Source: Desulfosudaceae bacterium
GTDB lineage: Bacteria; Desulfobacterota; Desulfobacteria; Desulfobacterales; Desulfosudaceae
DNA: 64,000 bases
Assembly (NCBI GenBank): GCA_963674745.2
Contig: CAXXDV010000001.1
Coordinates: 480,001-544,000 of the forward strand
Direction of reading: 5' to 3'
Made by a program: the position numbers and the translations under genes. Within the stretch, counting starts at the first letter, position 1; every line of letters begins with the position of its first letter. Below are positions 13,200 through 63,993 of this stretch, piece after piece. Under the pieces are notes generated by a model. It ran no database searches. It had not been told where the DNA came from and saw only the letters and a list, made by a program, of their open reading frames with translations.

Positions 13200-13874
13200 T
13201 CACCAATTGGTATACATATCCTTGAGCGATTTTTTCAAATTACCCTTAATCAGAGCGTAATTACTTCGCTCTTTGGATGCCATGTCCCGGGCAAAGGCCA
13301 TGGTCTTTTCAAAGAGTTCGGATTCAGGGTAAATGTAGTTAACAATGCCCTGCTGCAGGCACGCTTCCCCGGTAAGGGCTTTTCCGGAAAGGACCATTTC
13401 ATTCACAGCATGTGGGCTGGACAGGTTGTTGATCAGGGCAATCAGGGGCTCATCCAGGGGCATACCATAAGTGGCTTCCGGAAAGCAGAAACGGCTTTTG
13501 TCAGCGCGCATAATCCGGAAATCCAGCGAACTTGCCATGATTGCGCCCATGGCATAGGCGTGACCCGCAATGCAGGCGATTGTGGGAAGGTTGAGGGTGG
13601 CCGCCCGTAAAAGGGTCTTCTTTACCCGGTGCAAAAAATCATCCCGCTCCTCAACGCTTGCAGAGGAGAACCACTGAAGGTTAATGCCGTTGGAAAAAAA
13701 TTTGGGGTGATTGCTGGTAATGACCATTGAAGCGTTTCCCGGCGAGTTTTCAATTTCATCAAAGACCTGATTGTATTCAATCAGCGCTTCGCTGCAAAAG
13801 GTATTTTTATTTTCACTGTCAATTAACGTAACCACAAAGACGTTGCCGTCTTTTTTTAAGTCCAGATATTTCAT
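13200..13874 (-). CDS. Enoyl-CoA delta isomerase-like crotonase
   Basis: KFFSNGINL, IACIAGHAYAMG, FCFPEA; GAGGAGG RBS. Confidence 0.88.
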   Translation of the reverse strand: MKYLDLKKDGNVFVVTLIDSENKNTFCSEALIEYNQVFDEIENSPGNASMVITSNHPKFFSNGINLQWFSSASVEERDDFLHRVKKTLLRAATLNLPTIACIAGHAYAMGAIMASSLDFRIMRADKSRFCFPEATYGMPLDEPLIALINNLSSPHAVNEMVLSGKALTGEACLQQGIVNYIYPESELFEKTMAFARDMASKERSNYALIKGNLKKSLKDMYTNW

Positions 13875-13950
13875 ACCGCTCCTCTCTGTAAAAATTCATC
13901 ACCCTTTATTGTGGTGATTTAGCTCATCCCGAAATCATTTCAACAGGCAA

Positions 13951-14068
13951 AGCATTAACCGTGCCATAATAATTATCTCTTAATATTCAATTAGTTATTT
14001 TTTTTGCCGGCATCAATATTACCAAATACGGAATAATTTATTGCCAAATATGGGATATATGCCTAAAT
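13951..14068 (-). promoter_or_regulatory. sigma54 promoter cassette P1 (-24/-12, IHF-like site, activator UAS)
   Basis: Minus-strand TGGCACGGTTAATGCT (13951-13966); ATTCAATTAGTTA at 13985; CCAAATA at 14022 and 14044. Confidence 0.85.
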
Positions 14069-14091
14069 GTACCATGTAAAAAAGGTCATAT

Positions 14092-16164
14092 ATGAATACC
14101 CGTGTGAACACCGACTTACAGACAGGCAAGCAATCTCTTCTAGACGAAGCAGATCTTCAGGAAGAACTGAATGATATTTTTAAAAGCATTTCAGGTCAGA
14201 TTCCCGTTGATAAAATTCACTGGGTTCAGACCCATTATGATCTGCAGATGATGCGTATCATCGCGCAGGCGTCAGACACGGGCGGCGAAATAACCAATTT
14301 CATGTATGACGTTCCCGGGGATATCGTGGCGTTTTTGGACAGCGACGCCCTGCCTGAAATCCATATCATGAATCAACCGGAAATCGATCCCATTGGAAAA
14401 GAAGTTTCCCGGCGGGCCAAACTGTTTGACTGGTCCGCTATGTATATAAATTTTCGCAACCGTACGGATACGTTATCCTCGGTAGCGATTTATGCGGATG
14501 GAAAGAACCGGTATTCCCGAGAACATACCCGTCTGCTGAGGCCTTTTTCGGGGCGCCTTCAACGAATTACGGATATCCTCATTGCTGATAATGAAAGAAA
14601 AATACCCCATCCGACGCAGAAAGAACCCGTTGAAGACAAAAATGATTTTTTCCGACAGGTCACCCTGCGGCTATGCGGCAACCTTGACCTGGAAACAGGT
14701 GTTACCCAGTGTCTTCAATACCTCAGCCGTTTTATTCCGGCTGATGGACTGATTGTCAGGCAGTTGGAACCGGAAATGCAATCCGAACGCGTGCTTGCGG
14801 AAAGTTTCGGCGTATTTCATCAAAAGTCAGGGACCCTGATTCCATTGTTCACCAGAGAGCGCAATCCTTCCGACAGGCGGAGCCCCCCCAGGATACGCAT
14901 CATCAACCGGCCGGAACAATCTGTTTCGGTGCAATTCTACACCCAAATTTTCGGGCATGACTTATCATGTATCTCCATGCCCCTTATCGACAAAAAAAAC
15001 CCGATTGGTGTGGCCGTGCTGGGCCTGGAAGGCAAGGACCGCTACCGGGAAGAGCACATGCAGCTTTTTGCACTGCTCCATGACCCTTTTGTCCTGGCCC
15101 TTTCAAACAACATCAAACACCGGGAAATGATACGACTGAAGAACCTGATTGAAGAAGAGAAACAGGGCCTGGCAGAAGAACTGCACTACAATGCGGCTGA
15201 TACCATCATCGGCAGCAGCCTGGGGCTGGCGGGCGTCATGGAAAATGCCCGGCTTGTTGCCGAACAGGACAGCCCGGTTTTGCTGACCGGTGAAACCGGT
15301 ACCGGCAAGGAAATCATCGCCAATTTCATCCACCGCAACTCTTTACGAAAAGACGGCCCCTTCATCAAGGTCAATTGCGGCGCCATACCGGATACGCTGG
15401 TGGACAGCGAACTGTTCGGTCATGAAAGGGGGGCCTTCACCGGCGCGGGCACCCGGAAAAAGGGCCGTTTTGAAAGGGCCCACAAAGGGACAATTTTTCT
15501 GGACGAAATCGCTGAACTGCCTCTGGCCGCCCAGGTCCGCCTGCTCCGGGTGCTGCAGCATAAAGTTATCGAGCGGGTTGGCGGTATGGAATCCATTTCC
15601 GTGGATATCCGTATTATTGCCGCCACTCATGGCAATCTGGAAGATCTGGTCGCGCATGGTCGGTTTCGGGAAGACCTGTGGTTTCGCCTGAATGTCTTTC
15701 CCATCCGGATTCCGCCGTTGCGATCAAGGCGGTCGGATATTCCGGCCCTGGTAGATTATTTTATTGAAAAAAAGTCCCTTGATTTGAAGTTTCACACCAG
15801 GCCGCTCCTGTCTGTTGATGCAATGGAACGGTTGACCGCTTATAACTGGCCGGGCAATGTCCGCGAACTGGAGAATGTCGTTGAAAGGGAATTGATACTC
15901 AGCAGGGGCGAGGCCCTGACATTTCAAAACATCAACCCCCAACCATCAGGCAATGATTCTCCGGGCAGTGCGGTTTCAAAAAATGATGTTTTGGGGCTGG
16001 ATGATTTTTTTGCCCGACACGTCAAAAAAGTCCTGGCCATGTGTAACGGCAAAATTAACGGCCCGGGCGGAGCAGCAGAATTGCTGAACATGAAACCCAA
16101 CACGCTCCGGAACAGGATGAAGAAACTGGGGATTCCTTACGGCGTAACAAAAGCTAAAAATTAA
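14092..16164 (+). CDS. sigma54-dependent activator (bEBP), type A, pair 1; GAF-like x2 + AAA + HTH (FhlA-like)
   Basis: GETGTGKE, GAFTGA, FLDEI, WPGNVRELEN, C-terminal GAAELL..KPNTLRNRMKKLGI. Confidence 0.95.
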   Translation: MNTRVNTDLQTGKQSLLDEADLQEELNDIFKSISGQIPVDKIHWVQTHYDLQMMRIIAQASDTGGEITNFMYDVPGDIVAFLDSDALPEIHIMNQPEIDPIGKEVSRRAKLFDWSAMYINFRNRTDTLSSVAIYADGKNRYSREHTRLLRPFSGRLQRITDILIADNERKIPHPTQKEPVEDKNDFFRQVTLRLCGNLDLETGVTQCLQYLSRFIPADGLIVRQLEPEMQSERVLAESFGVFHQKSGTLIPLFTRERNPSDRRSPPRIRIINRPEQSVSVQFYTQIFGHDLSCISMPLIDKKNPIGVAVLGLEGKDRYREEHMQLFALLHDPFVLALSNNIKHREMIRLKNLIEEEKQGLAEELHYNAADTIIGSSLGLAGVMENARLVAEQDSPVLLTGETGTGKEIIANFIHRNSLRKDGPFIKVNCGAIPDTLVDSELFGHERGAFTGAGTRKKGRFERAHKGTIFLDEIAELPLAAQVRLLRVLQHKVIERVGGMESISVDIRIIAATHGNLEDLVAHGRFREDLWFRLNVFPIRIPPLRSRRSDIPALVDYFIEKKSLDLKFHTRPLLSVDAMERLTAYNWPGNVRELENVVERELILSRGEALTFQNINPQPSGNDSPGSAVSKNDVLGLDDFFARHVKKVLAMCNGKINGPGGAAELLNMKPNTLRNRMKKLGIPYGVTKAKN

Positions 16165-16175
16165 CGGAACACATT

Positions 16176-18251
16176 ATGAAAAGCGCGCCGGATACTGTTT
16201 TAGACCAGATAAAAGAACGTGTCGCTTCAGACGGGGATATCTACGAGGCGGTTTACACGTATTACGAATATATTCAAAAACACCTTCCCGCGGAACGAAT
16301 GAGCCTGAGCCTGCTTGACTTTGATCAGAAAAACATACAAATCATTGCCCAGGCCAGTAAAACCGGAAGTGAAAAAACAGATTTCATCGTTTCAACCCCA
16401 AAAGAGCTACCGGCTTTTTTTAATTTGAACGATCTGCCTGAAATTTACATGATCAACGAACCGGAAACCGACCCGCTCGGACGGAATATGATTAAGCGAA
16501 CAGGTTTCAAGGACTGGTCTCTGATAGGCGTGCTGATCAGGGAACAGGCAGTTGCTTACGGTGTGATATTTTTTACGGTTAAAGGGAAAAACGGGTATTC
16601 TGAAAAACATGCCGCCTTGCTCACGGATTTATATGATTCGCATAAATGGCTTCTGGACGCTGTTATCAGGGAACATAAGAACAAACCCGGCGGCCTTGAT
16701 CAAAAAGAGACCGTAGAAGACAAATATGAATTCTTCCGCCAGGTCACCCGGCGGTTATGCGGGCACCTTGACATGGAGGTCGGTGTTCTGCATTGTTTTC
16801 AATACCTCAGCCGGTTCTTTCAGGCTTCCATGCTGTCCGTCCACAAACATCATGAAGAGAGTGATACAGATATCATCGGGGTCGGACCGACCACTTTTTT
16901 AAACTATTTCGATCCGGATATGATGGCCAGGGGTACAGAAAGCCTGAGCCCTGCGGAAAAAACATCGTCTCCCGAAACCGTGATCACCAATCGCCCCGAG
17001 CGCGACCCTACCCTGAATCGCACGGTAAAAAAATTCGGGGCCAACTGGTCGGCGATCACCATGTATCTTTCACATAAGCGGGTCCCGCTCGGCCTTGCCA
17101 ACCTCGTCACGGAAGGAAGAGATGCTTTTTCTGAGGAGCAAAGGGAGCTGTTTGCCATGCTCCATGACCCGTTTTCCCTGGCCCTTTCAAATCATATCAC
17201 ACACCGGGAAGTCATCCGGCTGAAAAACATCATCGAAGACGAGAAGAAAAACCTTCAGGAGGAATTGCATTTCTCCGGGGAAACCACCATTATCGGCGAA
17301 ACGTCGGGATTAAAGGGGGTCATGGACAGTGCCCGGGTTGTCGCCGGCCGGGAAAGCCCGGTTTTGCTGTCCGGTGAAACCGGCGTGGGCAAGGAAATCA
17401 TCGCCAATTTTATCCACCGGCAATCATCACGAAGAGACGCCCCCCTGATCAAGGTCAATTGCGGTGCCATCCCGGATACACTGGTCGACAGCGAACTGTT
17501 CGGCCATGAAAAAGGGGCCTTCACCGGCGCGGACACCCGAAAAAAAGGCCGTTTTGAACGGGCTGACGGCGGGACGGTTTTTCTGGATGAAATCGCGGAA
17601 CTGCCCCTTCCGGCCCAGGTCCGCATGCTGCGGGTCCTGCAAAATAAAACCATCGAACGGGTAGGAGGCACAGAGACCGTACCCGTGAATATCCGCATCA
17701 TCGCCGCCACCCACCGCAACCTGGAAGAAATGGTCGCTTCCGGCCTGTTCCGGGAAGACCTGTGGTTCCGGCTGAATGTCGTTCCCATCCATATCCCGCC
17801 CTTGAGAGCAAGACGGTCGGACATCCCGGCCCTTGTGGATTATTTTATTGAGAAAAAATCCCGGGAAATGACACTTCATGTCAATCCATCCCTGCCTGCC
17901 GATGCCATGGAGCGGTTGACTTCGTATGAATGGCCCGGCAATGTTCGTGAACTGGAGAACGTCATTGAAAGGGAGCTGATCCTGCAAAAAGGCGAGGCGC
18001 TCACGTTTGAGCACATCATTCCCGGGCCGACAAGCGGTAATACACAAGATAATAATACCATTCCGGAAGACGACGTTCTGGAAATGGACAAGGCCTTTGC
18101 CCGTCATATCAGAAACGTTCTGGGGCTTACGCAAGGTAAAATCAACGGCCCCGGAGGGGCAGCGGAATTACTGAAAGTTAAACCCAGCACCCTCCGCCAC
18201 CGCATGGACAAACTGGGAATCACCTATGGCTGGAAAAAAACAAAAAAATAA
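16176..18251 (+). CDS. sigma54-dependent activator (bEBP), type B, pair 1
   Basis: GETGVGKE, GAFTGA, WPGNVRELEN, HTH; 11-bp gap after partner. Confidence 0.95.
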   Translation: MKSAPDTVLDQIKERVASDGDIYEAVYTYYEYIQKHLPAERMSLSLLDFDQKNIQIIAQASKTGSEKTDFIVSTPKELPAFFNLNDLPEIYMINEPETDPLGRNMIKRTGFKDWSLIGVLIREQAVAYGVIFFTVKGKNGYSEKHAALLTDLYDSHKWLLDAVIREHKNKPGGLDQKETVEDKYEFFRQVTRRLCGHLDMEVGVLHCFQYLSRFFQASMLSVHKHHEESDTDIIGVGPTTFLNYFDPDMMARGTESLSPAEKTSSPETVITNRPERDPTLNRTVKKFGANWSAITMYLSHKRVPLGLANLVTEGRDAFSEEQRELFAMLHDPFSLALSNHITHREVIRLKNIIEDEKKNLQEELHFSGETTIIGETSGLKGVMDSARVVAGRESPVLLSGETGVGKEIIANFIHRQSSRRDAPLIKVNCGAIPDTLVDSELFGHEKGAFTGADTRKKGRFERADGGTVFLDEIAELPLPAQVRMLRVLQNKTIERVGGTETVPVNIRIIAATHRNLEEMVASGLFREDLWFRLNVVPIHIPPLRARRSDIPALVDYFIEKKSREMTLHVNPSLPADAMERLTSYEWPGNVRELENVIERELILQKGEALTFEHIIPGPTSGNTQDNNTIPEDDVLEMDKAFARHIRNVLGLTQGKINGPGGAAELLKVKPSTLRHRMDKLGITYGWKKTKK

Positions 18252-21422: not shown

Positions 21423-22826
21423 TTAACGGGTTGCACGGGTTTCCCGGTAATCGCTCAGCGCTTTTCGTATGTTGTCGATCAGGTCTTTGGGAAACTGCTT
21501 TCCGGCCAGTTTCCGCTCGACCGCTCTTCCCGCTGTTTCAATGGCCTGTTGATCTTCGGGTGACAAGGTCACGGCCTTTATACCACATTTGGTTTCAAAG
21601 GCTTCCAGGCTTTTTGCTTCGTATCTTCTGATCATCTCCTTCCACTCAGGTTCAACAGCGTTTAGTTCGGAGACAAACATTTCCAGGATATTTTTAGCGC
21701 AGGTATCAGAGACACCTATATCTTTTCGAAGCCGGGCCCGTATGCTGGAGCTGACCAGCACCGACCCCGGAACATAAAAAACCGAGGGCTTAAGGTAGAA
21801 ATTCGTGTACTGGTAGGTCTGCATGCCCAGCATATAGGCCGGGGGCGACAGATTAACGATTTCCTGGCCCGGGCGGAAAAAGCTAATAACATCATCCATA
21901 GATACAGACGTTACGTTGCTTATGCCCAGCGCCTGATAAAAAGGAGGCTCTATGTCGTTGTAAAGCATTAAAATCTTCTCTTTTTTCAAGTCCGCCAGGC
22001 CGGATACCCTGTTTACTGAAAACCAATATAAATTACCGGTATCAACAAGGGCACACAGAATGTAGCCGTTTTCCTCAAAAGCCCGGTCCAGCGTTTTTCT
22101 GAACGTTTTTAAGATGAAATCAACTTCTTCGTAATTCTTGAACAGGCCGGGCAGCGACAATACAGAAGAAACGGAAGATGCTTCCAGCATACCAATGACG
22201 GTGCAGCCGCAACTGTCGAGCTGGCCGTCTTTCATTTTTTCCAGAACATCCAGGTCGTCTCCCATGACCCCGCCGCCGTAAATTTTGATTAAAACTTTTC
22301 CCCCGGTCAGCTTCTTAATTCTGGGAAAAATGATGTTTTCGGGCACATTCATCCAGGGTGTGCCCGGGGGCGCAAGGGTGCCGACTGTCAACACCATCGG
22401 CTCTTTGTTCTGGAGTGGCGACGTGGCAGCACGCCAAATGATGATTTTAGCCGCTTCCCACGCCATGTGGGGGGAAAAGAGGGGGTTAAAGCGCTCTGAA
22501 ACATCGTTTAAAACGTATCGGGATGTTTGATAGCGATTTAGTAAAGGCATGGCCGTCTTTTCAATCATGCTTTCAAGGACCGCTGTTGTTATGGTGCCGT
22601 TTGACAGCATGGCTTTCATTGCCTGCTGGCGCTGCTTTAATTCAACAGGAAATTCCCGACCGGTCCACAATGCAATCAGGCTGTCCTGCAGTATGCTTTG
22701 AAATTTTTCGGCGGTTTTTTCTTCTGCCGCGGCAGCAAGGGGTTGTCCGGCGATAGCCGCAATTGTAAGCGCGGCAATGATTGTCAACAGGCTTGTCTTG
22801 AATGAATACAAACGAATAAAAAACAT
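21423..22826 (-). CDS. dctP: TRAP transporter substrate-binding protein DctP (TPAT-like) with N-terminal extension
   Basis: Signal peptide; GTLAPPGTPW, KIYGGGVMGD, LPGLFKNYEEVD. Confidence 0.8.
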   Translation of the reverse strand: MFFIRLYSFKTSLLTIIAALTIAAIAGQPLAAAAEEKTAEKFQSILQDSLIALWTGREFPVELKQRQQAMKAMLSNGTITTAVLESMIEKTAMPLLNRYQTSRYVLNDVSERFNPLFSPHMAWEAAKIIIWRAATSPLQNKEPMVLTVGTLAPPGTPWMNVPENIIFPRIKKLTGGKVLIKIYGGGVMGDDLDVLEKMKDGQLDSCGCTVIGMLEASSVSSVLSLPGLFKNYEEVDFILKTFRKTLDRAFEENGYILCALVDTGNLYWFSVNRVSGLADLKKEKILMLYNDIEPPFYQALGISNVTSVSMDDVISFFRPGQEIVNLSPPAYMLGMQTYQYTNFYLKPSVFYVPGSVLVSSSIRARLRKDIGVSDTCAKNILEMFVSELNAVEPEWKEMIRRYEAKSLEAFETKCGIKAVTLSPEDQQAIETAGRAVERKLAGKQFPKDLIDNIRKALSDYRETRATR

Positions 22827-24479: not shown

Positions 24480-25574
24480 TTAATTTTCGTTGTTATGATT
24501 TTTTACGCGATACCGTTCAATCACGGCCACACGCATTCGCTCTGTTTCGGAAAACGCGCTGGCCTTTATTTCTTCTATCAACTCTTTTTTGTCGCCTTCG
24601 GGCCAGTCGGCGGCATTAATCTGATCCACCTCTTCAAAGAAATCGTTCAAACGGGACTTCCATACGCGGTTTCTTTCATCCAGCGCTGCCATCCGCTGGG
24701 CTGCATCATACCCGTAATCGGCCAGCCGCCTGTCATACAGTTCGTCATCGGACAGCGACTCTTCCTGCCAGGCTTTTTCTTTGTTTATAGACCCACTCAC
24801 CTGTTCGTGATTGCGGATGATCTCCTGCTGCATTTCCGGCAATTGGCTTCTCAGTTCCTCTATCCGGCGTTGTTTTTCTTCGTCCGGCAAATCCGCAAGG
24901 CTCAGTTCCAGGCGGGCGATATTGTAGGCCTGGTAATTTTCCTCACTTTCAAAAAACACATCGCTGTATTCCTGACCGAAGTGACGCTTACGGGCTTCCG
25001 CCAGGTACGCATGATATGCTTTCAGGTAATCAACCAGATCCCGGCCGTAAATATTATATACATCCGTGTTATCAGAAGCCCCGTATTCTGCCAGATCCCG
25101 GTTATAGGCCATAAACTTCTGCAGCAGCGCCCGTGCCTGTTCGGCCGCCTTGGGTGAAAGCTTGCTGTCAAGATACTGCTCCATATTGGCGGCAATCTGT
25201 TCGGGTGTTTTTTCGCCAAGCGCTGAAAAAAAATAATCAAAGAGGTCCTTAAAACCGATGTCTACAACCAGGTTGCCGTTTTTGTCCTCCTGCAACCGGC
25301 CGTCGATTTCCGTGTCATGCTGGGACGGTGATATCAGCGCTGACGCCGGCAAAGGACGTTCTGCCGGAGGCGCCTGGTCAGTCGGAAGCGGGGTGGTTTT
25401 CTTTTCTTCTATGGGCACCGGGCTTGAAAGCGCGTTCGCAGGTAAATCAAGAGAGGCTTGTTTGGCGGGTATAGGCGACGGTGAGTCGCTTTGCATCCAG
25501 TATATCAAGCCGGCAATAATAAAAAATACGGCAGACGCGGATAAAAAATATTTTATTTTTTCCTTAAAAATCAT
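24480..25574 (-). CDS. Lipase-specific foldase (Lif/LimK chaperone)
   Basis: N-terminal TM anchor, Pro-rich linker, TEIDGRLQEDKNGNLVV, KDLFDYFFSALGE Lif motif, AAQRMAALDERNRVWKSR; ATG 25574 with AGGAG RBS. Confidence 0.88.
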   Translation of the reverse strand: MIFKEKIKYFLSASAVFFIIAGLIYWMQSDSPSPIPAKQASLDLPANALSSPVPIEEKKTTPLPTDQAPPAERPLPASALISPSQHDTEIDGRLQEDKNGNLVVDIGFKDLFDYFFSALGEKTPEQIAANMEQYLDSKLSPKAAEQARALLQKFMAYNRDLAEYGASDNTDVYNIYGRDLVDYLKAYHAYLAEARKRHFGQEYSDVFFESEENYQAYNIARLELSLADLPDEEKQRRIEELRSQLPEMQQEIIRNHEQVSGSINKEKAWQEESLSDDELYDRRLADYGYDAAQRMAALDERNRVWKSRLNDFFEEVDQINAADWPEGDKKELIEEIKASAFSETERMRVAVIERYRVKNHNNEN

Positions 25575-25668
25575 GGCCACTCCTGAACCCTTTTTACGCC
25601 AGCCACGCAAACTGCTGTCCGATATTGACAATAACGCCGGGCTTCGCTAACGTTATCAGTCTTTATTT

Positions 25669-25913: not shown

Positions 25914-25948
25914 TTAGGCCCCTCAAAGCATTTCTTTGAGGGGCCTAA
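25914..25948 (-). terminator. Intrinsic terminator of esterase-phosphatase operon
   Basis: Perfect 15-bp stem TTAGGCCCCTCAAAG/CTTTGAGGGGCCTAA followed by ATTTTT on minus strand. Confidence 0.75.
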
Positions 25949-28869: not shown

Positions 28870-28985
28870 AGCATTAATCGTGCCATAAAAATTACCCATA
28901 AAATTCAGAATGTTAATATTTAAACCAAAACAATACTGCCAAATAGTAAAACTCTTCTTGCCAAATAGTAAAACCTTCTCTATAT
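28870..28985 (-). promoter_or_regulatory. sigma54 promoter cassette P3
   Basis: TGGCACGATTAATGCT (28870-28885); ATTCAGAATGTTA at 28903; TGCCAAATAGTAAAAC direct repeat with 22-bp period. Confidence 0.88.
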
Positions 28986-29007
28986 GATAGATTCAAGGAT
29001 GATAATT

Positions 29008-31083
29008 ATGAAAAAACAAAATCTTCTTGATGAAAGCGCCCTTCAGGAAGAGCTGGGTGATATTTTCAGCTGTCTTTCAAGTCAGATTCCCGCGAATACG
29101 ATCAATTGGGTCCAGTCGCATTTTGATCCGATGGTCATAAGGATTATCGGACAGGCGTCAGACACCGGCGGAGAAAAGACCAATTTCATTTACGACGTCC
29201 CCGAAAAGATCGCAGCGATTTTTCAAAGTGACGCCCTGCCCGAAATCCACCTGATAAACCACCCGGAAAGAGATCCCCTGGGAAAAGAGATATCCAGGCG
29301 CGCCAAACGCTTTGACTGGTCGGCCCTGGTTATTAATTTTCGAAACCGCTCGGATACGCTATGCTCGGCAATAGTCTATGCGGATGGAAAGGACCGGTAC
29401 AAGGAAGAACATATCCGCCTGGTCACCCCCCTTAAGATGCGCCTTCAACAAGTTATGGACGTCCTCATTGCGGACAATGAAAAGAAAGGCCTGAACCCCA
29501 CTGAAAAAGAACCGGTTAAGGACAAAAATGAATTTTTTCGCCAGGTCACCCTGCGATTATGCGGCCATCTTGACCCTCAAACCGGTGTTTCCAAATGCCT
29601 CCAATACATCAGCCGCTTTATGCCGGCCGACGCGCTCTTTGTCAGACAGCTGGAGCCGGAATTTCAATCGGAACGCGTGCTCGCGGAAAGTTTTGGTGTA
29701 TTTCATCAACAGACAGGAACCCTGATTCCTCTGGTCCCGGAAAAACGGAACACCGCCCTCAGGCGGGGGGCCGACAGGCGAAGAATCCCCCGGATACGCA
29801 TTATCAACCAGCCGGACCAATCTGCCGCCACGCAGCCCTATGTGCAAATATTCGGCAATGACTTTTCGTGTATTTCCATGCCGCTTATCCATGGGAAAAA
29901 GCCCATTGGCCTGGCCGTACTGGGCCTGGAAGGCAGGGACCGCTACCGGGAAGCGCATCTGCAACTTTTCTCGCTGCTTCATGATCCGCTTGTCCTGGCC
30001 CTGTCAAACAACATCAAACACCGGGAAGTCATCCGGCTGAAAAACCTGATCGAGGAGGAAAAAACAGACCTGGCCGAAGAGCTGCATTACACGGCGGCAG
30101 ACACCATTATCGGCGGCAGCCTGGGCCTGGAGGCCGTCATGGAAAAGGCCCGCCTTGTCGCTGATCAGGACAGTCCGGTGTTGCTGTCCGGCGAAACCGG
30201 CACGGGTAAAGAAATCATCGCCAATTTTATCCATCAGAAGTCCGCGCGGAAAGACGGCCCCTTCATCAAGGTCAATTGCGGTGCGATACCGGATACACTG
30301 GTGGACAGCGAACTGTTCGGTCATGAAAAGGGCGCATTCACCGGCGCAGACGCCCCCAAAAAGGGCCGCTTTGAAAGGGCTGACAGGGGAACGATTTTTC
30401 TGGATGAAATTGCCGAATTGCCCCTGGCCGCCCAGGTCCGCCTGCTGCAGGTACTGCAGCATAAAATAATCGAGCGCGTCGGGGGTACGGACGCCAAATC
30501 CGTCGATATCCGTATTGTCACCGCCACCCACCGCAACCTGGAAGAACTGGTCGCAAAGGGCCGATTCCGTGAAGATTTGTGGTTCCGGCTGAATGTTTTC
30601 CCCATACAGATCCCCCCCCTGCGATCAAGGACAATGGATATCCCGGCCCTGGTGGATTATTTCATTGACAAAAAGTCGCTTGACTTGAAGCTTCACACCA
30701 AACCGTCCCTGAGTCCGGACGCAATGAAGCGGTTGATGTCCTATGAATGGCCGGGAAACGTCCGTGAACTGGAAAACGTCGTTGAAAGAGAATTGATCCT
30801 GAACAAGGGAGAAGCCCTCACGTTTCATCATATCAACCCCCGGCAAACAAGTGACGGGGAAACCGACGATGTCATGACAGAAGAGAATATCCTGTCCCTT
30901 GATGAAGTTTTTACCCGTTACGTTAAAAAAGTTCTGGGCCTGTGCGACGGTAAAATCAGCGGCCCGCACGGCGCCGCGAAAATGCTTCAGGTAAACCCGA
31001 GCACGCTCCGCAACAGGTTGAAAAAAATGGGAATCCCCTACGGTTGGAACCCAAAAAAACCGCTTAATCGGGATACGCAATGA
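29008..31083 (+). CDS. sigma54-dependent activator (bEBP), type A, pair 2
   Basis: Same architecture as 14092; GAFTGA; ATG 29008 has AAGGA RBS (alternative start 28984). Confidence 0.95.
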   Translation: MKKQNLLDESALQEELGDIFSCLSSQIPANTINWVQSHFDPMVIRIIGQASDTGGEKTNFIYDVPEKIAAIFQSDALPEIHLINHPERDPLGKEISRRAKRFDWSALVINFRNRSDTLCSAIVYADGKDRYKEEHIRLVTPLKMRLQQVMDVLIADNEKKGLNPTEKEPVKDKNEFFRQVTLRLCGHLDPQTGVSKCLQYISRFMPADALFVRQLEPEFQSERVLAESFGVFHQQTGTLIPLVPEKRNTALRRGADRRRIPRIRIINQPDQSAATQPYVQIFGNDFSCISMPLIHGKKPIGLAVLGLEGRDRYREAHLQLFSLLHDPLVLALSNNIKHREVIRLKNLIEEEKTDLAEELHYTAADTIIGGSLGLEAVMEKARLVADQDSPVLLSGETGTGKEIIANFIHQKSARKDGPFIKVNCGAIPDTLVDSELFGHEKGAFTGADAPKKGRFERADRGTIFLDEIAELPLAAQVRLLQVLQHKIIERVGGTDAKSVDIRIVTATHRNLEELVAKGRFREDLWFRLNVFPIQIPPLRSRTMDIPALVDYFIDKKSLDLKLHTKPSLSPDAMKRLMSYEWPGNVRELENVVERELILNKGEALTFHHINPRQTSDGETDDVMTEENILSLDEVFTRYVKKVLGLCDGKISGPHGAAKMLQVNPSTLRNRLKKMGIPYGWNPKKPLNRDTQ

Positions 31084-33158
31084 AGAACAAGCCGGATATT
31101 GTTTCAAACCAGGTCAAACAGCATGTCGCTTCCGGCGGGGATATCTATGAGGCGGTGCACGCCCATTTCGATTCTTTTCAAAAATATCTTCCCGCGGAAC
31201 GAATGAGCCTGTGTATGCTCGATTTTGAACAGAAAAACCTACGAATCATTGCCCAGGCCAGTAAAACGGGCGGTGAAAAAACAGATTTTAACATTCCGGT
31301 GCCCGAAGAGCTCCTGGCTGCTTTTAATTTGGACGACCTGCCTGAAATTTACATGGTCAATGAACCGGAATCAGACCCGCTCGGGCAGAATATTATCAAG
31401 CGATCGGGCTTCAAAAACTGGTCCCTGATAGGCATGCGGATTAAGAATCAGGAAGTCGCATACGGCGCCATATTTTTTACGACCAACGGCAAAAACAGGT
31501 ATACGGATAAACATGCCGCTCTGCTCTCAGATTCATATGATGCACATGAATGGTTTCTGAAGACTGTTGTCAAGGACCATGGGGACAAAACCGGCGGCCT
31601 TGATCAAAAAGAAACGGCGGAAGATAAATATGAATTCTTCCGTCAGGTCACCCGGCGGTTATGCGGACACCTTGATATGGAAACCGGTGTTCTCCATTGT
31701 TTCCAATATCTCAGCCGCTTTTTTCAAGCGTCCATGCTGTCCGTCCACAAGCATCACAAGTCGGATGATACCGATATTATCGGGGTCGGACCTACCCATT
31801 TTTTTAATTATTTCGATCCCGGTATGATCGCCAGGGATACAGAAAGCCACAGTCCGAGGGAAATAACGATCGCCCCCAAAACAGTCATTATCAACAACCC
31901 CGAAAACGATCCTACCCTGAAACGGGCTTTAGACATGTTCGGAAGCAACTGGTCGTCGATTACCATGTATCTTTCTCACAAGCGGGTCCCGCTCGGTCTT
32001 GCATCTATTGTCACGGAAGGGAGAGACGCTTTTTCAGAGGCGCACAGAAAACTATTCGCCATGCTCCATGACCCGTTTGCCCTGGCGCTTTCCAACCATA
32101 TCAAACACCGGGAAGTCATCCGGCTGAAAAACACCATTGAAGATGAAAAAAAGAACATTCAGGATGAGTTACATTTCTCCAGGGAAGTCACCATTGTCGG
32201 CGGCACTTCAGGCTTAAAGGGGGTCCTGGAAAGTGCCCGGGTTGTCGCCCGTCGGAACAGCCCGGTACTATTGTCAGGAGAGACGGGTGTGGGCAAAGAA
32301 ATCATCGCCAATTTCATCCACCATCAATCTTCACGAAAAAGCGGCCCCTTGATCAAAGTCAATTGCGGCGCCATACCGGACACCCTGGTGGACAGCGAAC
32401 TGTTCGGTCATGAGAAAGGGGCTTTCACCGGCGCTGAGGCCCGAAAAAAAGGCCGTTTTGAAAGGGCCGACGGCGGTACGATCTTTCTGGATGAAGTCGC
32501 GGAACTGCCCCCCCCGGTCCAGGTCCGCATGCTGCGGGTCCTGCAGAATCAAATCATCGAGCGGGTCGGCGGGACAGGGTCTATACCCGTTAATATCCGG
32601 ATCATTGCCGCCACCCACCGCAACCTGGAAGAATTGGTCGCCGCCGGCAGATTCCGGGAAGACCTGTGGTTCCGTCTGAATGTGTTTCCCATCCATATCC
32701 CCCCCCTGCGATCCCGGCGATCGGACATTCCGGCACTGGTAGATTTCTTCATTGATAAAAAATCCCGCGAAATGAATTTCCATGTTGTACCGTCGCTTTC
32801 TCCGGATGCAATGAAGCGCCTTGTCGCGTATGAATGGCCGGGGAATATCCGCGAACTGGAAAATGTTATTGAAAGGGAACTGATCCTGAAAAAGGGCGAA
32901 CTGCTCACCTTTGAGAGTCTGATCCCCTCGCGCCCGGCAAACAACCCCCTGGATAATGTAATGACAAAAGACGATGTCCTGCCCCTTGATGAGATCTATA
33001 CCCGTCATATCAGAAAAGTCCTGGAGATAACCGGCGGAAAGATCAGCGGCCCGGGCGGTGCGGCGGAAAAGCTGAAAATAAAACCGGGGACCCTCCGCAA
33101 ACGGATGGACAAACTGGGAATTGATTACGGGTGGAAGAAACAGGATAAAACGACGTGA
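31080..33158 (+). CDS. sigma54-dependent activator (bEBP), type B, pair 2
   Basis: ATGA overlap with partner; GETGVGKE, GAFTGA, HTH. Confidence 0.95.
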   Translation: MKNKPDIVSNQVKQHVASGGDIYEAVHAHFDSFQKYLPAERMSLCMLDFEQKNLRIIAQASKTGGEKTDFNIPVPEELLAAFNLDDLPEIYMVNEPESDPLGQNIIKRSGFKNWSLIGMRIKNQEVAYGAIFFTTNGKNRYTDKHAALLSDSYDAHEWFLKTVVKDHGDKTGGLDQKETAEDKYEFFRQVTRRLCGHLDMETGVLHCFQYLSRFFQASMLSVHKHHKSDDTDIIGVGPTHFFNYFDPGMIARDTESHSPREITIAPKTVIINNPENDPTLKRALDMFGSNWSSITMYLSHKRVPLGLASIVTEGRDAFSEAHRKLFAMLHDPFALALSNHIKHREVIRLKNTIEDEKKNIQDELHFSREVTIVGGTSGLKGVLESARVVARRNSPVLLSGETGVGKEIIANFIHHQSSRKSGPLIKVNCGAIPDTLVDSELFGHEKGAFTGAEARKKGRFERADGGTIFLDEVAELPPPVQVRMLRVLQNQIIERVGGTGSIPVNIRIIAATHRNLEELVAAGRFREDLWFRLNVFPIHIPPLRSRRSDIPALVDFFIDKKSREMNFHVVPSLSPDAMKRLVAYEWPGNIRELENVIERELILKKGELLTFESLIPSRPANNPLDNVMTKDDVLPLDEIYTRHIRKVLEITGGKISGPGGAAEKLKIKPGTLRKRMDKLGIDYGWKKQDKTT

Positions 33159-39979: not shown

Positions 39980-40096
39980 AGCATTAATCATGCCGAAAAA
40001 ATTATTCCATAATATTCAACAGGTTGCTATTTTCACAGCCCCCGGGCTTCGAAATATGAAAGAATTAACTGTGAAATATGAAAAGTTGCCATATAA
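39980..40096 (-). promoter_or_regulatory. sigma54 promoter cassette P4
   Basis: CGGCATGATTAATGCT (39980-39995); ATTCAACAGGTTG at 40014; GAAATATGAAA at 40051 and 40073. Confidence 0.85.
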
Positions 40097-40119
40097 TAGA
40101 AAATCAGATTGGATACGCT

Positions 40120-42345: not shown

Positions 42346-42363
42346 TAATAATTGGTGAACGAT

Positions 42364-45628: not shown

Positions 45629-47848
45629 CTAAAAAGGCGTTTCCCCGCACCTGAAGAAATAGGGCAGAACATCCAAGGGCGCATCAACGGTTACCGTCTG
45701 CCCGCCCTGGTACACATCGTTTGTCATCATATACTGCCAGCATCCTTCCGGTAACTTTACTGATTTGGTGCGTTTTCCTCTGTCCAATACCGGTGCCACC
45801 AGAACTTTTTCCCCCAGCATAAATTGCCCCATTTCATTGCCAAATCGATCATCGTCCGGAAAGGCCAGCCACATCGGCCGCCACAGCGGCATGCCGGTTG
45901 CGGCCGCGGTTTGCCAGAGTGTATTCATATAAGGCAGGGCTTTCTTTCTTAAGGCAAGCACAGACTTGAAAATATGTACGGTCTCATCATCATAGGACCA
46001 GGGTGTTTTAAGTGCTGTGAAAGGGGAGTTATGAAGTCTGAAGACGGATATAAATGTTGCCAGCTGGGTCCAGCGGATAAAAAGCTCTTTATTGGCAACA
46101 CCGTAGAGGTCCCAATATCCGCCGATATCTGTTGACGCATTATAGGCGCCGCCCAGGCCCCGGTTGAGGATGTCCGGTAGTACCGACTTAATGCCGGTGT
46201 CGGCATCCCAGGATTGGGTATTGTCCCCGAGAAACTGAGCGCTTTCGTAGGCCGGCGAGCCGGGTCGCCCGGTATAATTGGCGCGGGTAAAAAAGAAAAT
46301 GTCCCGCCCCGGATGGGCCTGCTCGTAGGCATCAACAATCCGGGCGGTTTCTTTATCGCCCAGGACCGGCAGCCTGTTATGCATGCTGCGTCCGGTTTCA
46401 CCATTATAGAAATGCATGTCAGGCCGGACCTGTTCGCCAAAGTCAAACATAAAACCGTCGCTGCCCAGATCCAGCATACGGGTCACCCGCTGTTCCCACC
46501 AGTCGAGGGCAAAGGGATTGGTATAATCCGTCACGCTTGTCGGTGCCATGAGTACCGGGTAGGCGTAGGGCGAACCGTCATCCCGGGTCGGCATATAACC
46601 ATTGTCGTATGCCTGGTAATAAATTTCCGGGTCTTCTGTGTTCAAAGAATCATCGGTTAACATCATCCGCATATAAGTTAACGGTTTTATATCCAGACGA
46701 TCGAGCTCTGCCAGCAACCGGTCCAGTTCTCCTTTGGTAAGATTGGCAGAAGACGCCCAGGCCTCGATAAGGTATCCACTCGTATCGATCTCCAGTTCCG
46801 TTAACTTCTGTAAATGCGCCATGGCATCCTTGAAATAAGCCCCGGGTTGGGCGTCACCAATTAACGTTATCGGCGACCGCTGAGCAAATATTAACCCTTT
46901 GGCCCAATCGGGAATCGCGCGGTGACGACCATTAATGGCCGTTATACTTGCTATATTATGCTTGTAATCCCCGGCACTCACGACAAAAGCGGCGCTGTTG
47001 GAAGATACATTCACCTTCCAGGCATCATCTCGGTCATTGCCCATATAGAACCTTGCCAGTTCACTGTTTTCAAGCAGAAAAGCGTAATCTTCCGAAGAAT
47101 AGAACAGCGCCTGCGGCCCATAGGCACGGGAAAGAGAGTATTTGTCCACTATAGCGTTCTGTGCCATGGCGTCCATGGTCCATGAGTAGAGCGCATTGCC
47201 TTTTTGATCCAGTGTCCCGCGACGTCCCCCGAAGCCATAAAAGGATTCATCACGGGCGCTTTTAAAAGCGAAGCTGATATTTTGTGCCCGTGCGTCATTT
47301 ACCGTGGCAGTAACCCGCATGGCTTTCACGCCTGATGGATCCGGTTCAACCAGGACGTCGACCGTTGTGTTGTTTCTGGTGGTTTCTAATTTGAACAACT
47401 TCCCGTTACCCGAATCGCGCACCTCGATTACGTCCGTGGCAAAATAGAGTTTCGTGTCGCGATAGACCTGCATCGGTTCGACAAAGAGCAAGTCGATAAA
47501 ATCAAAGGTTTCAGGGCCGCCGATTTCAAAGTGCAAAGGGTGATAGCTGTCGCAGATGACCGGTGGGAAAGACCAGAACTCTCCCATCAAGTCGGGTTCG
47601 CAGTAATGGCAATCCGGATTTAAAATGGGGGTATTGCTGTCAATCGAAGCCAACACGGTCCGCCCGCCACCGTCTTTAATGAGAAGGCGAAACGGCCCGG
47701 TTTCTACCACAGCGGATACGTTATTACCGGACACCACATATTGCGGATCTAAAGAAGGCTCCGGCGGCGGCGGCGCAAAGGCAAACAGTTGTGGCGTGAA
47801 AATCGACAAACAAAAAAGTGCTGAAAAAATTATGTTGAACCGTTTCAT
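45629..47848 (-). CDS. Secreted glycoside hydrolase family 31
   Basis: ESFYGFG, DYTNP, FMFDFGE nucleophile, FLGDN acid/base, TDIGGY, RWTQL, FRLH, PLWRPM, VLVAPV; signal + FAPPPPEP; ATG 47848 with AAAGGAG RBS. Confidence 0.9.
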   Translation of the reverse strand: MKRFNIIFSALFCLSIFTPQLFAFAPPPPEPSLDPQYVVSGNNVSAVVETGPFRLLIKDGGGRTVLASIDSNTPILNPDCHYCEPDLMGEFWSFPPVICDSYHPLHFEIGGPETFDFIDLLFVEPMQVYRDTKLYFATDVIEVRDSGNGKLFKLETTRNNTTVDVLVEPDPSGVKAMRVTATVNDARAQNISFAFKSARDESFYGFGGRRGTLDQKGNALYSWTMDAMAQNAIVDKYSLSRAYGPQALFYSSEDYAFLLENSELARFYMGNDRDDAWKVNVSSNSAAFVVSAGDYKHNIASITAINGRHRAIPDWAKGLIFAQRSPITLIGDAQPGAYFKDAMAHLQKLTELEIDTSGYLIEAWASSANLTKGELDRLLAELDRLDIKPLTYMRMMLTDDSLNTEDPEIYYQAYDNGYMPTRDDGSPYAYPVLMAPTSVTDYTNPFALDWWEQRVTRMLDLGSDGFMFDFGEQVRPDMHFYNGETGRSMHNRLPVLGDKETARIVDAYEQAHPGRDIFFFTRANYTGRPGSPAYESAQFLGDNTQSWDADTGIKSVLPDILNRGLGGAYNASTDIGGYWDLYGVANKELFIRWTQLATFISVFRLHNSPFTALKTPWSYDDETVHIFKSVLALRKKALPYMNTLWQTAAATGMPLWRPMWLAFPDDDRFGNEMGQFMLGEKVLVAPVLDRGKRTKSVKLPEGCWQYMMTNDVYQGGQTVTVDAPLDVLPYFFRCGETPF

Positions 47849-47987
47849 TCCATACGCTCCTTTGTAATTGCGTTTAACACCATCAGGCAACCCTATCTCC
47901 TCCTTACCTGATCTGCTTAATCTCGATATACCGGTATAAAAACGATTGTTCCTTGACTATTTTGACAATAATTAGCATTATCCTCAC

Positions 47988-59758: not shown

Positions 59759-59876
59759 AGCATTATTTGTGCCAAAAAATTAATATACACTTTTCAGTTG
59801 GTTACAATTTTGCCAGGAAAATAATTATTAAATAGGGAAATAATTATTACGAAATAGAGAAATGCGTCTCTATTTC
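59759..59876 (-). promoter_or_regulatory. sigma54 promoter cassette P5
   Basis: TGGCACAAATAATGCT (59759-59774); TTTCAGTTGGTTA at 59792; AAATAG at 59830 and 59852; perfect palindrome GAAATAGAGA-N6-TCTCTATTTC. Confidence 0.87.
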
Positions 59877-63337: not shown

Positions 63338-63459
63338 AGCATTAATCGTGCCAAATAAAAAAATATATTAAATTCAATGACTTAAAAGTATTAATGGTAT
63401 TAAGATGTGAGATGGGGAATTTTTTTGCTGTTAAATAGGGAAATCTTCTCTATTTAACA
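63338..63459 (-). promoter_or_regulatory. sigma54 promoter cassette P6
   Basis: TGGCACGATTAATGCT (63338-63353); ATTCAATGACTTA at 63372; palindrome TGTTAAATAG-N11-CTATTTAACA (63429-63459). Confidence 0.87.
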
Positions 63460-63488
63460 ATTAGAAAGGTATTATCGATGATAATGTA

Positions 63489-63520
63489 AAATGCCCTTCT
63501 GGAGACTCAAAAGGGCATTT
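63489..63520 (-). terminator. Hairpin after PilZ gene
   Basis: AAATGCCCTT...AAGGGCATTT. Confidence 0.55.
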
Positions 63521-63614
63521 AAGGCTTATTTCTTGACCGTTATTGATCGTATAAGTTTTTAGATCAATATGTTATACATATCTGATCCGGATATTATAAA
63601 TCCGGGGACACGGC

Positions 63615-63923
63615 CTACACATACTGCACCCCGCATCCATACAGACGCGATCCGCTTGCCTCTTTTTTTGCGCACCACTTCACTTCCGCCTGGCGCGAAT
63701 CATCGGAACTGGAACCAATCGGGGCAATCGCCGGGATCTTGTTTGCTTTGACGCGGATATATTCCCCGGGATCCAAAGGGCCGGAAACTTCAAAAAAGAG
63801 CCCCCCCACACTGAAATTCTTCATCAGCACGGAAGAGGGCATAAGGGCTGTTTCCCTTAATATGACAACTACCGCTTCGCACCCGAACCTGAAGTGTTTA
63901 CGGCGGTCTTCATATCCAGTCAT
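63615..63923 (-). CDS. Stand-alone PilZ domain protein
   Basis: RKHFR (RxxxR), NFSVGG (D/NxSxxG), AEVKWC, YGCGVQY. Confidence 0.85.
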   Translation of the reverse strand: MTGYEDRRKHFRFGCEAVVVILRETALMPSSVLMKNFSVGGLFFEVSGPLDPGEYIRVKANKIPAIAPIGSSSDDSRQAEVKWCAKKEASGSRLYGCGVQYV

Positions 63924-63977
63924 TTCGATATCCCCCTGTTGACAGCTGTTCCCTGAAAATACTTCGTATCCAGATTT

Positions 63978-63993
63978 AGCATTAATCGTGCCA
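63978..63993 (-). promoter_or_regulatory. sigma54 promoter P7 (upstream cassette cut by window edge)
   Basis: Exact TGGCACGATTAATGCT on minus strand, 55 bp upstream of the PilZ start. Confidence 0.85.

Follow-up and report, generated by a model that had tools for sequence, protein, structure and literature searches.

Sigma-54 promoter cassettes and paired tandem-GAF activators associated with predicted exported lipolytic enzymes in a Desulfosudaceae bacterium

A 64-kb stretch of the genome of a Desulfosudaceae bacterium (G000:C1:480001-544000, G000 being its own genome; hereafter the window) carries seven copies of a sigma-54 promoter, three of which are divergent from tandem sigma-54 activator gene pairs. 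We propose, with a probability of roughly 0.7, that these modules belong to a lineage-restricted sigma-54 regulatory family that drives mainly exported lipolytic enzymes. Judging from the predicted functions of the genes involved, their physiological role is likely the extracytoplasmic hydrolysis of complex lipids.

An initial annotation of the region had reported seven copies of one sigma-54 promoter, all on the minus strand, and all of them were recovered. A pattern scan for the exact sequence TGGCAC-N4-AATGCT gave six matches in the window, each of them on the minus strand; the seventh site, P4 (39980-95, also on the minus strand), is the variant CGGCATGATTAATGCT. The exact pattern occurs nine times in the whole 5.55-Mb genome, and six of these nine occurrences fall inside the window, which makes up 1.15% of the genome. 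With a looser canonical sigma-54 pattern allowing one mismatch, seven matches were obtained in the window against a mean of 2.46 in shuffled sequences, a number equalled in 1 of 100 shuffles; one of these matches (45783-98, within a GH31 gene) is no cassette, and P4 escaped this search. Agreement with the canonical TGGCACG-N4-TTGCW reaches 15 of 16 positions in four of the seven window sites, and the spacing of the GG and GC doublets of the canonical -24/-12 element is preserved in all seven, P4 reading CGGCAT. The genome encodes a single copy of rpoN (Sigma54_DBD at 208.8 bits, cut-off 22.8), and the promoters would thus be expected to depend on sigma-54 in vivo.

The seven sites can be aligned over approximately 130 bp, and we read them as copies of one paralogous sigma-54 cassette, in which three candidate activator sites are followed by a site like those for integration host factor (IHF), then by the -24/-12 element (TGGCACGATTAATGCT). 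The cassettes of the window are as follows:

Cassette P1: 13937..14102, minus strand, with the -24/-12 element TGGCACGGTTAATGCT at 13951-13966; divergent from activator A1.
Cassette P2: 25655..25818, minus strand, -24/-12 element at 25669-25684; from the alignment and nhmmer.
Cassette P3: 28856..29019, minus strand, -24/-12 element at 28870-28885; divergent from activator A2.
Cassette P4: 39966..40130, minus strand, variant -24/-12 element CGGCATGATTAATGCT at 39980-39995; divergent from activator A3.
Cassette P5: 59745..59909, minus strand, -24/-12 element at 59759-59774; no activator adjoining.
Cassette P6: 63324..63488, minus strand, -24/-12 element at 63338-63353; from the alignment and nhmmer.
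Cassette P7: 63964..64000, minus strand, -24/-12 element at 63978-63993; from the alignment and nhmmer, its activator sites lying outside the window and reaching position 544127 of contig C1.
Intrinsic-terminator-like hairpin: 25914..25948, minus strand, a 15-bp stem and a T run; closes the P3 operon ahead of P2.

The internal order of the cassette is regular. Using a weight matrix trained on two of the repeats, with positions counted from the T of TGGCAC, activator sites 2 and 3 are predicted at -87±1 and -65±1 in P1-P8, and an inverted copy of the site, which was outside the training set, is found at -105 to -107 in six of the eight cassettes; the background of this matrix in the genome is 0.28 matches per kb per strand. 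A conserved TAAC-N4-TGAA lies between site 3 and the -24 element, and its opposite strand is the best match to the IHF consensus (WATCAANNNNTTR). A match with at most one mismatch was the best one in seven of ten cassettes, at -30/-31 in six and at -34 in the seventh; just 14% of AT-rich random 52-mers attain such a match at any position.

The activator sites fall into sequence subclasses, TATTTGGCA in P1-P3, TATTTC(A/G) in P4, CTATTT(C/A)(G/A) in P5-P8 and ATATGACA in P13, that agree with the phylogeny of the activators and therefore suggest which pair acts on which promoter: pair 1 would serve P1, pair 2 both P2 and P3, pair 3 P4 and probably P9, and pair 4, situated 32 kb past the window end, P8 and probably also the orphan promoters P5-P7. 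The idea of one regulon, as first put forward, is thus retained as far as the shared cassette goes, but because the sites are split into subclasses, parallel modules are likelier than a single co-induced regulon.

P1, P3 and P4 each have tandem sigma-54 activator genes divergent from them, identified with Pfam, as the initial annotation had it:

Activator A1: 14092..16164, plus strand, tandem GAF/AAA+/helix-turn-helix (HTH), first gene of pair 1; Pfam and tree.
Activator B1: 16176..18251, plus strand, second gene of pair 1, beginning 12 bp past the A1 stop.
Activator A2: 28984..31083, plus strand; its N-terminal 370 aa were modelled as tandem GAF.
Activator B2: 31080..33158, plus strand, with a 4-bp overlap with the A2 stop.
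Activator A3: 40078..42186, plus strand, with an L1 loop reading GAFTDA, not GAFTGA, in the motif alignment.
Activator B3: 42352..44439, plus strand, HTH_8 detected by Pfam.

These proteins appear to form a lineage-restricted family in which a tandem GAF sensor precedes an AAA+ sigma-54 motor and a probable C-terminal HTH. All six window activators match Sigma54_activat (Pfam E 1e-67 to 1e-69), and all 27 family members retain the Walker A, Walker B and arginine finger motifs. The GAFTGA loop, which contacts sigma-54, is unchanged in 24 of them, the variants being one GAFTDA (A3) and two GSFTGA, all of them in paired genes; the GAFTDA of A3 coincides with a promoter, P4, that carries CGGCAT in place of TGGCAC. 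Pfam HTH_8 passes in one of the six window activators, and the C-terminal segment is conserved in all six. The genome encodes 13 paralogues sharing the ∼370-aa sensor, namely four tandem pairs on contig C1, a fifth pair on contig C3 and three singles. The two genes of the fifth pair (C3:2543231-2549279) are split by an inserted open reading frame (ORF) of 481 aa, which we read as a transposase.

The two genes of a pair are of distinct types. The first gene of each pair falls in a clade A (support of 87 in the SH-like approximate likelihood ratio test; ultrafast bootstrap of 88 in a second tree), and every second gene outside of it, hereafter type B. A precedes B in each of the nine pairs available in three genomes (five in G000, three in G002, one in G007). 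The tree of the A genes mirrors that of the B genes, A1 grouping with the first and B1 with the second gene of the G002-Y pair, and the A1/A2 and B1/B2 relationships being mirrored in G002; the pairs have therefore been duplicated as units. The A and B activators of the initial annotation are thus real types with a conserved gene order. The genes within a pair overlap by 4 bp or are separated by 12-22 bp in pairs 1, 2 and 4, in G007 and in G002-Y, and the gap in pair 3 is 166 bp.

The conserved order, the tight spacing of several pairs, their co-duplication and the loop variants suggest that A and B cooperate. A serious competitor, to which we would give somewhat less than an even chance, is that A and B are independent homo-oligomeric regulators sharing enhancer sites, so that each promoter integrates two signals. 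Both types retain all ATPase motifs and the putative HTH, the divergence between A and B is greatest in the first half of the second GAF, and both types also occur as single genes beside cassettes: A-type singles stand at an FAD-oxidase operon in G000, G002 and G003, and B-type singles at a lipase and foldase locus in G000, G002 and G007. Since such singles exist, a heteromer is not required by the family. Independence fits less well with an A-then-B order that is strictly conserved, with pairs that overlap or nearly abut in several cases and were duplicated as units with mirrored trees, and with L1-loop variants that affect 3 of 27 members, all paired, and none of the seven singles, although these numbers are small.

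The A2 sensor was modelled with AlphaFold2 (mean predicted local distance difference test, pLDDT, of 87.7) as two GAF domains linked by a long helix, and the best Foldseek matches of the model are the tandem GAFs of CyaB2 and PDE2/5/6. The most conserved stretch of the sensor, R(L/I)CGxLD-x7-C, is invariant in 27 of 27 members and opens the second GAF (A2 residues 191-205); its two cysteines are a possible metal, redox or ligand site. It is conceivable, but in our view unlikely, that the sensors read a redox, metal or nucleotide signal, so that the modules report the state of the cell and not a substrate. The invariant two-cysteine motif, the cyclic-nucleotide-binding tandem GAFs among the nearest folds, the presence of PilZ proteins in the set of targets and the Fe-S redox-sensing sigma-54 activator of Desulfovibrio described in part of PMC8359166 would all suit such a role. 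Yet two cysteines in each chain would be a small number for a cluster, GAF domains in general give such a fold match, and each module adjoins a specific catabolic target, as would be typical of substrate-sensing activators. We favor a substrate-derived, and more precisely a lipid-derived, signal.

The reach of the cassette beyond the window was assessed by searching the whole genome with an nhmmer profile built from the seven window copies, whose own recovery (E 1e-25 to 1e-34) is by construction. The genome holds a total of 13 cassettes at E ≤ 5e-4, seven of which are the training copies; the six untrained ones have E-values from 1e-17 to 5e-4:

Untrained cassettes (nhmmer): C1:576064, C3:1601737, C3:2530713, C3:2549376, C3:2057513 and C3:2386820.

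Activator genes are divergent from P1, P3, P4, P8, P11, P12 and P13. Two further candidates, C3:2202499 and C1:1666000 (E 0.027 and 0.041), were rejected as cassettes, being ordinary sigma-54 promoters, one of them before a glnA-like gene. Two additional promoters of the -24/-12 type, C3:2518453 and C3:2513714, precede genes with the export leader described below, near a paralogous activator.

We tallied the targets of these 15 promoters (13 cassettes and the two additional -24/-12-type promoters). Exported hydrolases with family-level matches are found behind eight of them: Lif foldase and lipase (twice, the second LipA-type lipase and Lif pair being at C3:2386820), a COesterase, a C45 protein, a PHP-like protein with an esterase, an esterase with a C45 protein, an esterase of the polyhydroxybutyrate (PHB)-depolymerase family, and an EEP phosphoesterase. 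Four more promoters precede weaker hydrolase candidates. Two of these (P10/P11) are paralogous proteins, 48% identical, for which a language-model look-up returned alpha/beta hydrolases at 0.97, to be taken as a lead only; the others are a chlorophyllase-like match below cut-off and a VolA/Pla-1-like match of 46.6 bits against a cut-off of 383.9. A foldase identity for the partner genes of P10/P11 was discarded, as the BLASTP alignment with the Lif foldase covers the N-terminal membrane anchor only (E 0.003), and sequence searches against solved structures returned nothing for the P11 protein or the EEP protein. A genome-wide scan for the cassette had been called for at the outset, and the genes downstream of its matches are indeed enriched for such hydrolases (8, and 4 weaker, of 15); the lack of enrichment that would have spoken against the proposal is therefore not what was found.

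Within the window, the genes behind P1-P7 come in the order initially listed, according to Pfam: crotonase, Lif and lipase, COesterase and a 339-aa protein, C45, PHP-like protein and esterase, esterase and C45, and PilZ. They are given here with the associated genes:

Behind P1: 13200..13874, minus strand, crotonase-fold enoyl-CoA hydratase/isomerase of 224 aa (Pfam ECH_1, E 1.4e-33).
Behind P2, first gene: 24480..25631, minus strand, Lif-type lipase chaperone, or foldase (Pfam Lipase_chap, E 6.3e-41).
P2: 23385..24464, minus strand, family I lipase with a signal peptide and polyproline leader (1ex9, E 1.8e-62).
Downstream of the P2 lipase: 21423..22826, minus strand, long DctP-like periplasmic binding protein (Pfam DctP; NCBIfam TRAP_S1, 137 bits).
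P3: 27097..28812, minus strand, type-B carboxylesterase with a proline-rich leader (Pfam COesterase, E 1.8e-118).
P3: 25995..27014, minus strand, 339-aa exported protein with a DxDxT-like motif (from its sequence).
P4: 38396..39895, minus strand, C45-family N-terminal nucleophile (Ntn, Cys) amidase/acyltransferase with a leader, hereafter C45a (NCBIfam C45_proenzyme).
Downstream of C45a: 37590..37949, minus strand, PilZ-domain protein (Pfam PilZ), in an arrangement equal to that in G002.
P5: 58376..59701, minus strand, PHP-like metallo-phosphoesterase, exported, with a leader (Pfam and NCBIfam matches below cut-off).
P5: 56957..58345, minus strand, esterase of the PHB-depolymerase/feruloyl-esterase family, exported, with a leader (Pfam, NCBIfam).
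P6: 61614..63245, minus strand, PHB-depolymerase family esterase, exported, with a conserved signal peptide and a short Pro/Glu stretch.
P6: 60062..61603, minus strand, second C45-family amidase, with a leader (Pfam, NCBIfam).
Behind P7: 63615..63923, minus strand, PilZ-domain protein (Pfam PilZ, E 3e-9).

The translation of the P1 crotonase shows no export signal. The P2 lipase has Pseudomonas aeruginosa LipA (1ex9) as its nearest solved relative, and the foldase reaches 211 bits with the NCBIfam lipase secretion chaperone model, under its cut-off of 285. The foldase gene stands ahead of the lipase gene in the P2 operon, which differs from the gene order in Pseudomonas. The DctP-like gene lies downstream of the lipase on the same strand and may be part of the P2 operon. 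It is one of four paralogous DctP-like proteins (21423-22826, 51029-52444, L011:1229-4126) of 464-475 aa with a signal peptide; they carry a helical N-terminal extension of ∼150 aa, and would bind released fatty acids. The nearby tripartite ATP-independent periplasmic (TRAP) transport genes of the initial annotation thus persist as long DctP-like binding proteins, but not as a transporter with its membrane part: none of the six DctM matches of the genome lies in or adjoins the window, and no DctQ/M partner was found near the DctP-like genes. An SCP2 gene, also listed as nearby, could not be upheld, with a sub-threshold score of 13.9 bits against 21.3.

The second protein of the P3 operon had been called an HAD phosphatase, an assignment we do not maintain, as neither NCBIfam nor Pfam, the latter searched to E ≤ 5, gave a match for the 339-aa protein; a weak resemblance to LNS2/App1-type phosphatidate phosphatases (atlas score 0.76) serves as a lead only. 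The two C45 proteins score 119.6 (C45a) and 113.7 bits with C45_proenzyme (cut-off 85). The AlphaFold2 model of C45a (pLDDT 90.2) has an Ntn fold, with a target-normalised template-modelling score of 0.72-0.76 to isopenicillin-N acyltransferase (IAT, 2x1d), followed by acid ceramidase, NAAA, the PLBD2-like 66.3-kDa protein and bile-salt hydrolases, and this modelled fold would be compatible with an acyl-amide substrate. The subfamily of C45a is small and uncharacterised (87 database clusters at E ≤ 1e-5), and a sequence search of solved structures with C45a gave nothing. For the P5 operon, predicted to encode a PHP phosphoesterase and an esterase, the esterase holds, whereas the PHP match stays below the Pfam cut-off (20.1 versus 26.4 bits) and that to NCBIfam CehA/McbA (53 bits) is sub-threshold as well. 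The case for the breakdown of polyesters that had been envisaged is weak, all three esterases missing the cut-off of 150 bits of the NCBIfam polyhydroxyalkanoate (PHA) depolymerase model NF050058 (114.0, 106.8 and 123.8 bits); among solved structures they come nearest to feruloyl esterases and to a PHB-depolymerase-family esterase (E 2e-10 to 1e-9). The PHP-like protein and two esterases (56957-59701, 61614-63245) have in common a domain of ∼90 aa after the leader, which reads WI.IY.AGADN.DYGEWYY...YEARLFY and shows a faint SKICH-like match (E 0.083). Both PilZ proteins carry RxxxR and (D/N)xSxxG motifs, and their presence in the promoter family hints at a link with cyclic di-GMP signalling.

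The exported enzymes do share a real leader, as the notion of a "tagged" secretome had implied. When the whole genome was scanned for ORFs that have, near the N-terminus, a hydrophobic segment and then five or more prolines in eight residues, 13 came up; 11 of these were kept and two removed by eye as unlikely genes. Eight of the 11 proteins are encoded in cassette operons, two behind sigma-54-type sites near the activator S2516, and one (GH31) behind an AraC-type regulator. Their alignment reads MKKK..L..K..V(L/M)S..TLFL...(S/T)(A/T)(A/T)(V/A)FA, then one or two residues, then PPPPPP, with no lipobox cysteine or twin arginine in any of the 11 leaders. With a leader profile, 13 copies were found in G000. 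Strong matches (E < 1e-5) were obtained in G000, G002, G007, G010 and G011 only among the 13 genomes of the family, and all five encode full-length activators of the present type. Among the 28 genomes outside the family, one (G031) gave a strong match, of 28 residues, in a frame of 96 aa interrupted by a TGA.

Leader and promoter are conserved together at the DNA level. Over promoter and 5' untranslated region (UTR), P4 (C45, contig C1) and P9 (EEP phosphoesterase, contig C3) share 82% identity, and again 82% over leader codons 1-36, versus 47% for their mature parts, members of different enzyme families; we take 47% to be near background for that scoring. Moreover, the upstream flank of P2 is a remnant-like copy of the P3/A2 divergent region, with no activator gene after it. 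Because of these two patterns, we read promoter, 5'UTR and leader as one unit that would have been copied before unrelated enzymes. A bolder version is that the leader is a new sorting or anchoring signal for a lipolytic exoproteome, co-evolved with heteromeric A+B activators that read two lipid-derived ligands, and that the promoter-UTR-leader unit is a portable express-and-export cassette recruiting new hydrolases. It seems to us improbable at present; if true, sulfate reducers of the Desulfosudaceae type would be primary degraders of the membrane and storage lipids of anoxic sediments.

The system has a narrow distribution. We searched 41 genomes representing the window's own genome, genus, family and order, 13 of them from its own family (G000 included). 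The full-length sensor was found only in this family, in six of the 13 genomes (G000, G002, G003, G007, G010, G011); elsewhere in the 41, matches cover the second GAF alone. A scan of 185,579 species (one genome per species) with two motif patterns yielded nine loci, seven with the full sensor and two with the second GAF only, including metagenome-assembled genomes (MAGs) of Smithella, of a "Deltaproteobacteria" member and of a Desulfobacterales member; named homologues are found in Desulfosudis oleivorans, for the activator as well as for C45, and in Smithella. Matches of the cassette profile adjoin the activator in G002, G003, G007, G011 and three of the loci of the new scan. As the Smithella and deltaproteobacterial MAGs again have a single A-type activator opposite C45 genes, C45 is the most widely conserved target.

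Taken together, these features suggest the following scheme. Each module would comprise one or two tandem-GAF/AAA+/HTH activators, usually a co-translated A-then-B pair, and a divergent cassette of ∼130 bp. The sensors would receive a signal, predicted to be lipid-derived, and the activators bound upstream would be looped onto the sigma-54 RNA polymerase through the IHF-like bend and open the promoter. The operons thus switched on would encode mainly Sec-exported lipolytic enzymes, along with the long binding proteins of DctP type, PilZ proteins and a small number of cytoplasmic enzymes for fatty acids. Complex lipids would be hydrolysed outside the cytoplasm to fatty acids, which would enter beta-oxidation coupled to sulfate reduction. 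The organism is a probable sulfate reducer, as initially supposed, because dsrA is present well above its curated cut-off (621 versus 393 bits).

A number of points weigh against this scheme. Three of the 15 promoters precede non-hydrolases, namely the crotonase, a PilZ protein, and a small ORF with an FAD-oxidase/CCG-domain operon. Single A and single B activators presumably function alone, and, as the site subclasses differ, the modules may answer different signals. The activities on triacylglycerols, phospholipids, amide lipids and polyesters are those we infer from sequence families. Finally, GspL (T2SSL) was not found in the genome, so that the enzymes may remain in the periplasm; the match to T2SSK (GspK-like) is weak, at 28 bits, and equally seen in control genomes without a type II system.

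The latter point bears on a different role for the enzymes, whose targets could be the envelope or storage polymers of the cell itself, or which could aid the uptake of hydrophobic substrates, for instance by membrane remodelling during growth on alkanes or fatty acids. Outer-membrane secretion is not established (T2SSL not found, T2SSK weak), the family includes hydrocarbon and fatty-acid degraders (the Desulfosudis oleivorans and Smithella homologues), Lnt-like acyltransferase paralogues stand beside several modules, and PilZ proteins are part of the set. We nonetheless give such a role only a minor chance, since the broad set of enzymes, together with binding proteins and beta-oxidation genes, looks catabolic, and the LipA-type lipase is extracellular in Pseudomonas according to part of PMC12134079. 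Lipases, an EEP phosphoesterase and the sub-threshold VolA/Pla-1-like match could also evoke antimicrobial weapons that attack membranes, which we consider very improbable, given the linkage with beta-oxidation genes and binding proteins and the lack of immunity genes or of a dedicated delivery system in the adjoining DNA. We therefore retain the hydrolysis of complex lipids for catabolism as the likely role of the modules.

Several neighboring genes deserve mention. The leader-bearing GH31 enzyme stands outside the cassette set:

45629..47890, minus strand, GH31 glycosidase with a leader, not behind a cassette but behind a divergent AraC-type regulator.
47988-48884, plus strand, AraC-type regulator, divergent from GH31 (Pfam).

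The nearest solved relatives of this protein are 8r56 and the sulfoquinovosidase YihQ. A sulfonate-binding RxxW motif marks the YihQ clade of GH31; KRVMW of YihQ (5aed) aligns with YLIE-AW here, so that RxxW is not retained, and we rejected a sulfoquinovosidase. The tagged GH31 is possibly a hydrolase of glycolipid head groups. Four genes resembling apolipoprotein N-acyltransferase (Lnt) are present in the genome (window 48913-50523, minus strand; C3:2390201, C3:1284973 and C3:915094), and such paralogues adjoin activator/lipase or activator/C45 modules in G000, G002, G007 and G011. The first 89 positions of the LNT_N profile match the window copy in another frame with a TGA (50154-50411), and this gene may be frameshifted, or the assembly in error. 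The FAD operon with the single A-type activator (L016 C3:2048000-2064000; L002, L007) is conserved and comprises, besides a gene for a 123-aa protein, those for an FAD-linked oxidase, a CCG-domain protein and a second oxidase, as well as ETF-like genes. Between pair 2 and C45a, a Ser/Thr kinase with an Lcl C-terminal domain adjoins a thiamine pyrophosphate-dependent enzyme (34081-37142, minus strand), and a MoxR-like AAA gene with a DUF2201 metallopeptidase/VWA gene (7189-9713, minus strand) lies beside an acyl-CoA dehydrogenase-like gene (9792-11498).

The customary view of sulfate reducers is that they carry out the terminal oxidation of small products of fermentation. The modules described here suggest that a sulfate reducer can attack whole lipids, and not small acids alone, and they would provide, as conserved, dedicated equipment for the control and export of lipases, esterases, amidases and phosphoesterases, a concrete gene set for primary lipid degradation. 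This is of interest as the lipid hydrolysers of anoxic sediments are poorly known, according to part of PMC8027456. The modules would also represent a second natural system of paired sigma-54 activators, now with sensor domains and in several copies per genome, and a clear-cut example of how promoter, 5'UTR and signal peptide can spread jointly before unrelated enzymes.

In the literature searched (supplementary files excluded), we found no description of multiplied A-B tandem-GAF activator pairs, of a fixed enhancer/IHF/promoter cassette for a dozen hydrolase operons, of a cassette-linked signal peptide and polyproline leader, or of the whole set in a sulfate reducer, and the main text of a broad sigma-54 regulon survey (PMC12316311) contains 0 occurrences of lipase or esterase. 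The claim of an undescribed system thus stands for the combination as a whole, but not for the control of lipases by sigma-54, which is known in Pseudomonas (in part of PMC12134079). What we report is a real, undescribed variant of the control of lipolytic enzymes by sigma-54 and enhancer-binding proteins.

The closest parallel in terms of targets is the lipase/foldase operon of Pseudomonas, which is under sigma-54 with LipQ/LipR in P. alcaligenes and CbrA/CbrB in P. aeruginosa, as outlined in part of PMC12134079. There as here, a LipA-type lipase and Lif stand behind a sigma-54 promoter with an upstream activating sequence and an activator of the NtrC superfamily (same part of PMC12134079). 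Unlike LipQ/LipR and CbrA/CbrB, the present activators have a tandem-GAF sensor, no receiver domain in Pfam and no histidine kinase beside the pairs. Here, moreover, an A+B pair is usual, the same promoter type is found at about a dozen further hydrolase operons, and the host is an anaerobic sulfate reducer. The domain order, GAF sensor(s), AAA+ sigma-54 domain and HTH, is that of FhlA, NifA and NorR, which are also the best NCBIfam models for the activators (B1 aligns to FhlA over residues 182-683), but the scores are far under the equivalog cut-offs (NifA, 341 versus 529 bits; FhlA, 321 versus 830 bits) and the targets differ.

With regard to the pairs, HrpR and HrpS have no sensor domain, whereas a tandem GAF of ∼370 aa is present here, five pairs occur in one genome, single members exist too, and the heteromer is putative. 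HrpR/HrpS of Pseudomonas syringae are co-dependent sigma-54 activators with a demonstrated heteromer and are, as here, adjacent paralogous AAA+ activators conserved and co-evolved as a pair (part of PMC3105312); further interacting paralogous activators are VnfA/AnfA (part of PMC9542535) and RedR1/RedR2 (part of PMC10084136). In Desulfovibrio vulgaris, also a sulfate reducer, OrpR forms with IHF a divergent unit of activator and sigma-54 promoter acting on neighboring operons (part of PMC8359166), and the cognate activator, the IHF-like site, the sigma-54 promoter and the neighboring operons recur in our modules, as predicted from sequence alone. In contrast to these, OrpR has an Fe-S sensor and other targets, and the same part of that article presents neither a paired activator nor a shared export leader. 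Our modules resemble in this last respect a system of a different lineage. YSIRK-type leaders of Gram-positive surface proteins are specialised, family-specific signal peptides; like them, the leader described here is a signal peptide conserved beyond the need of Sec that marks a functional set of exported proteins, but it differs in sequence, KKK..L(T/S)LFL..Q(S/A)(A/T)(A/V)FA followed by polyproline, and it is tied to one promoter family.

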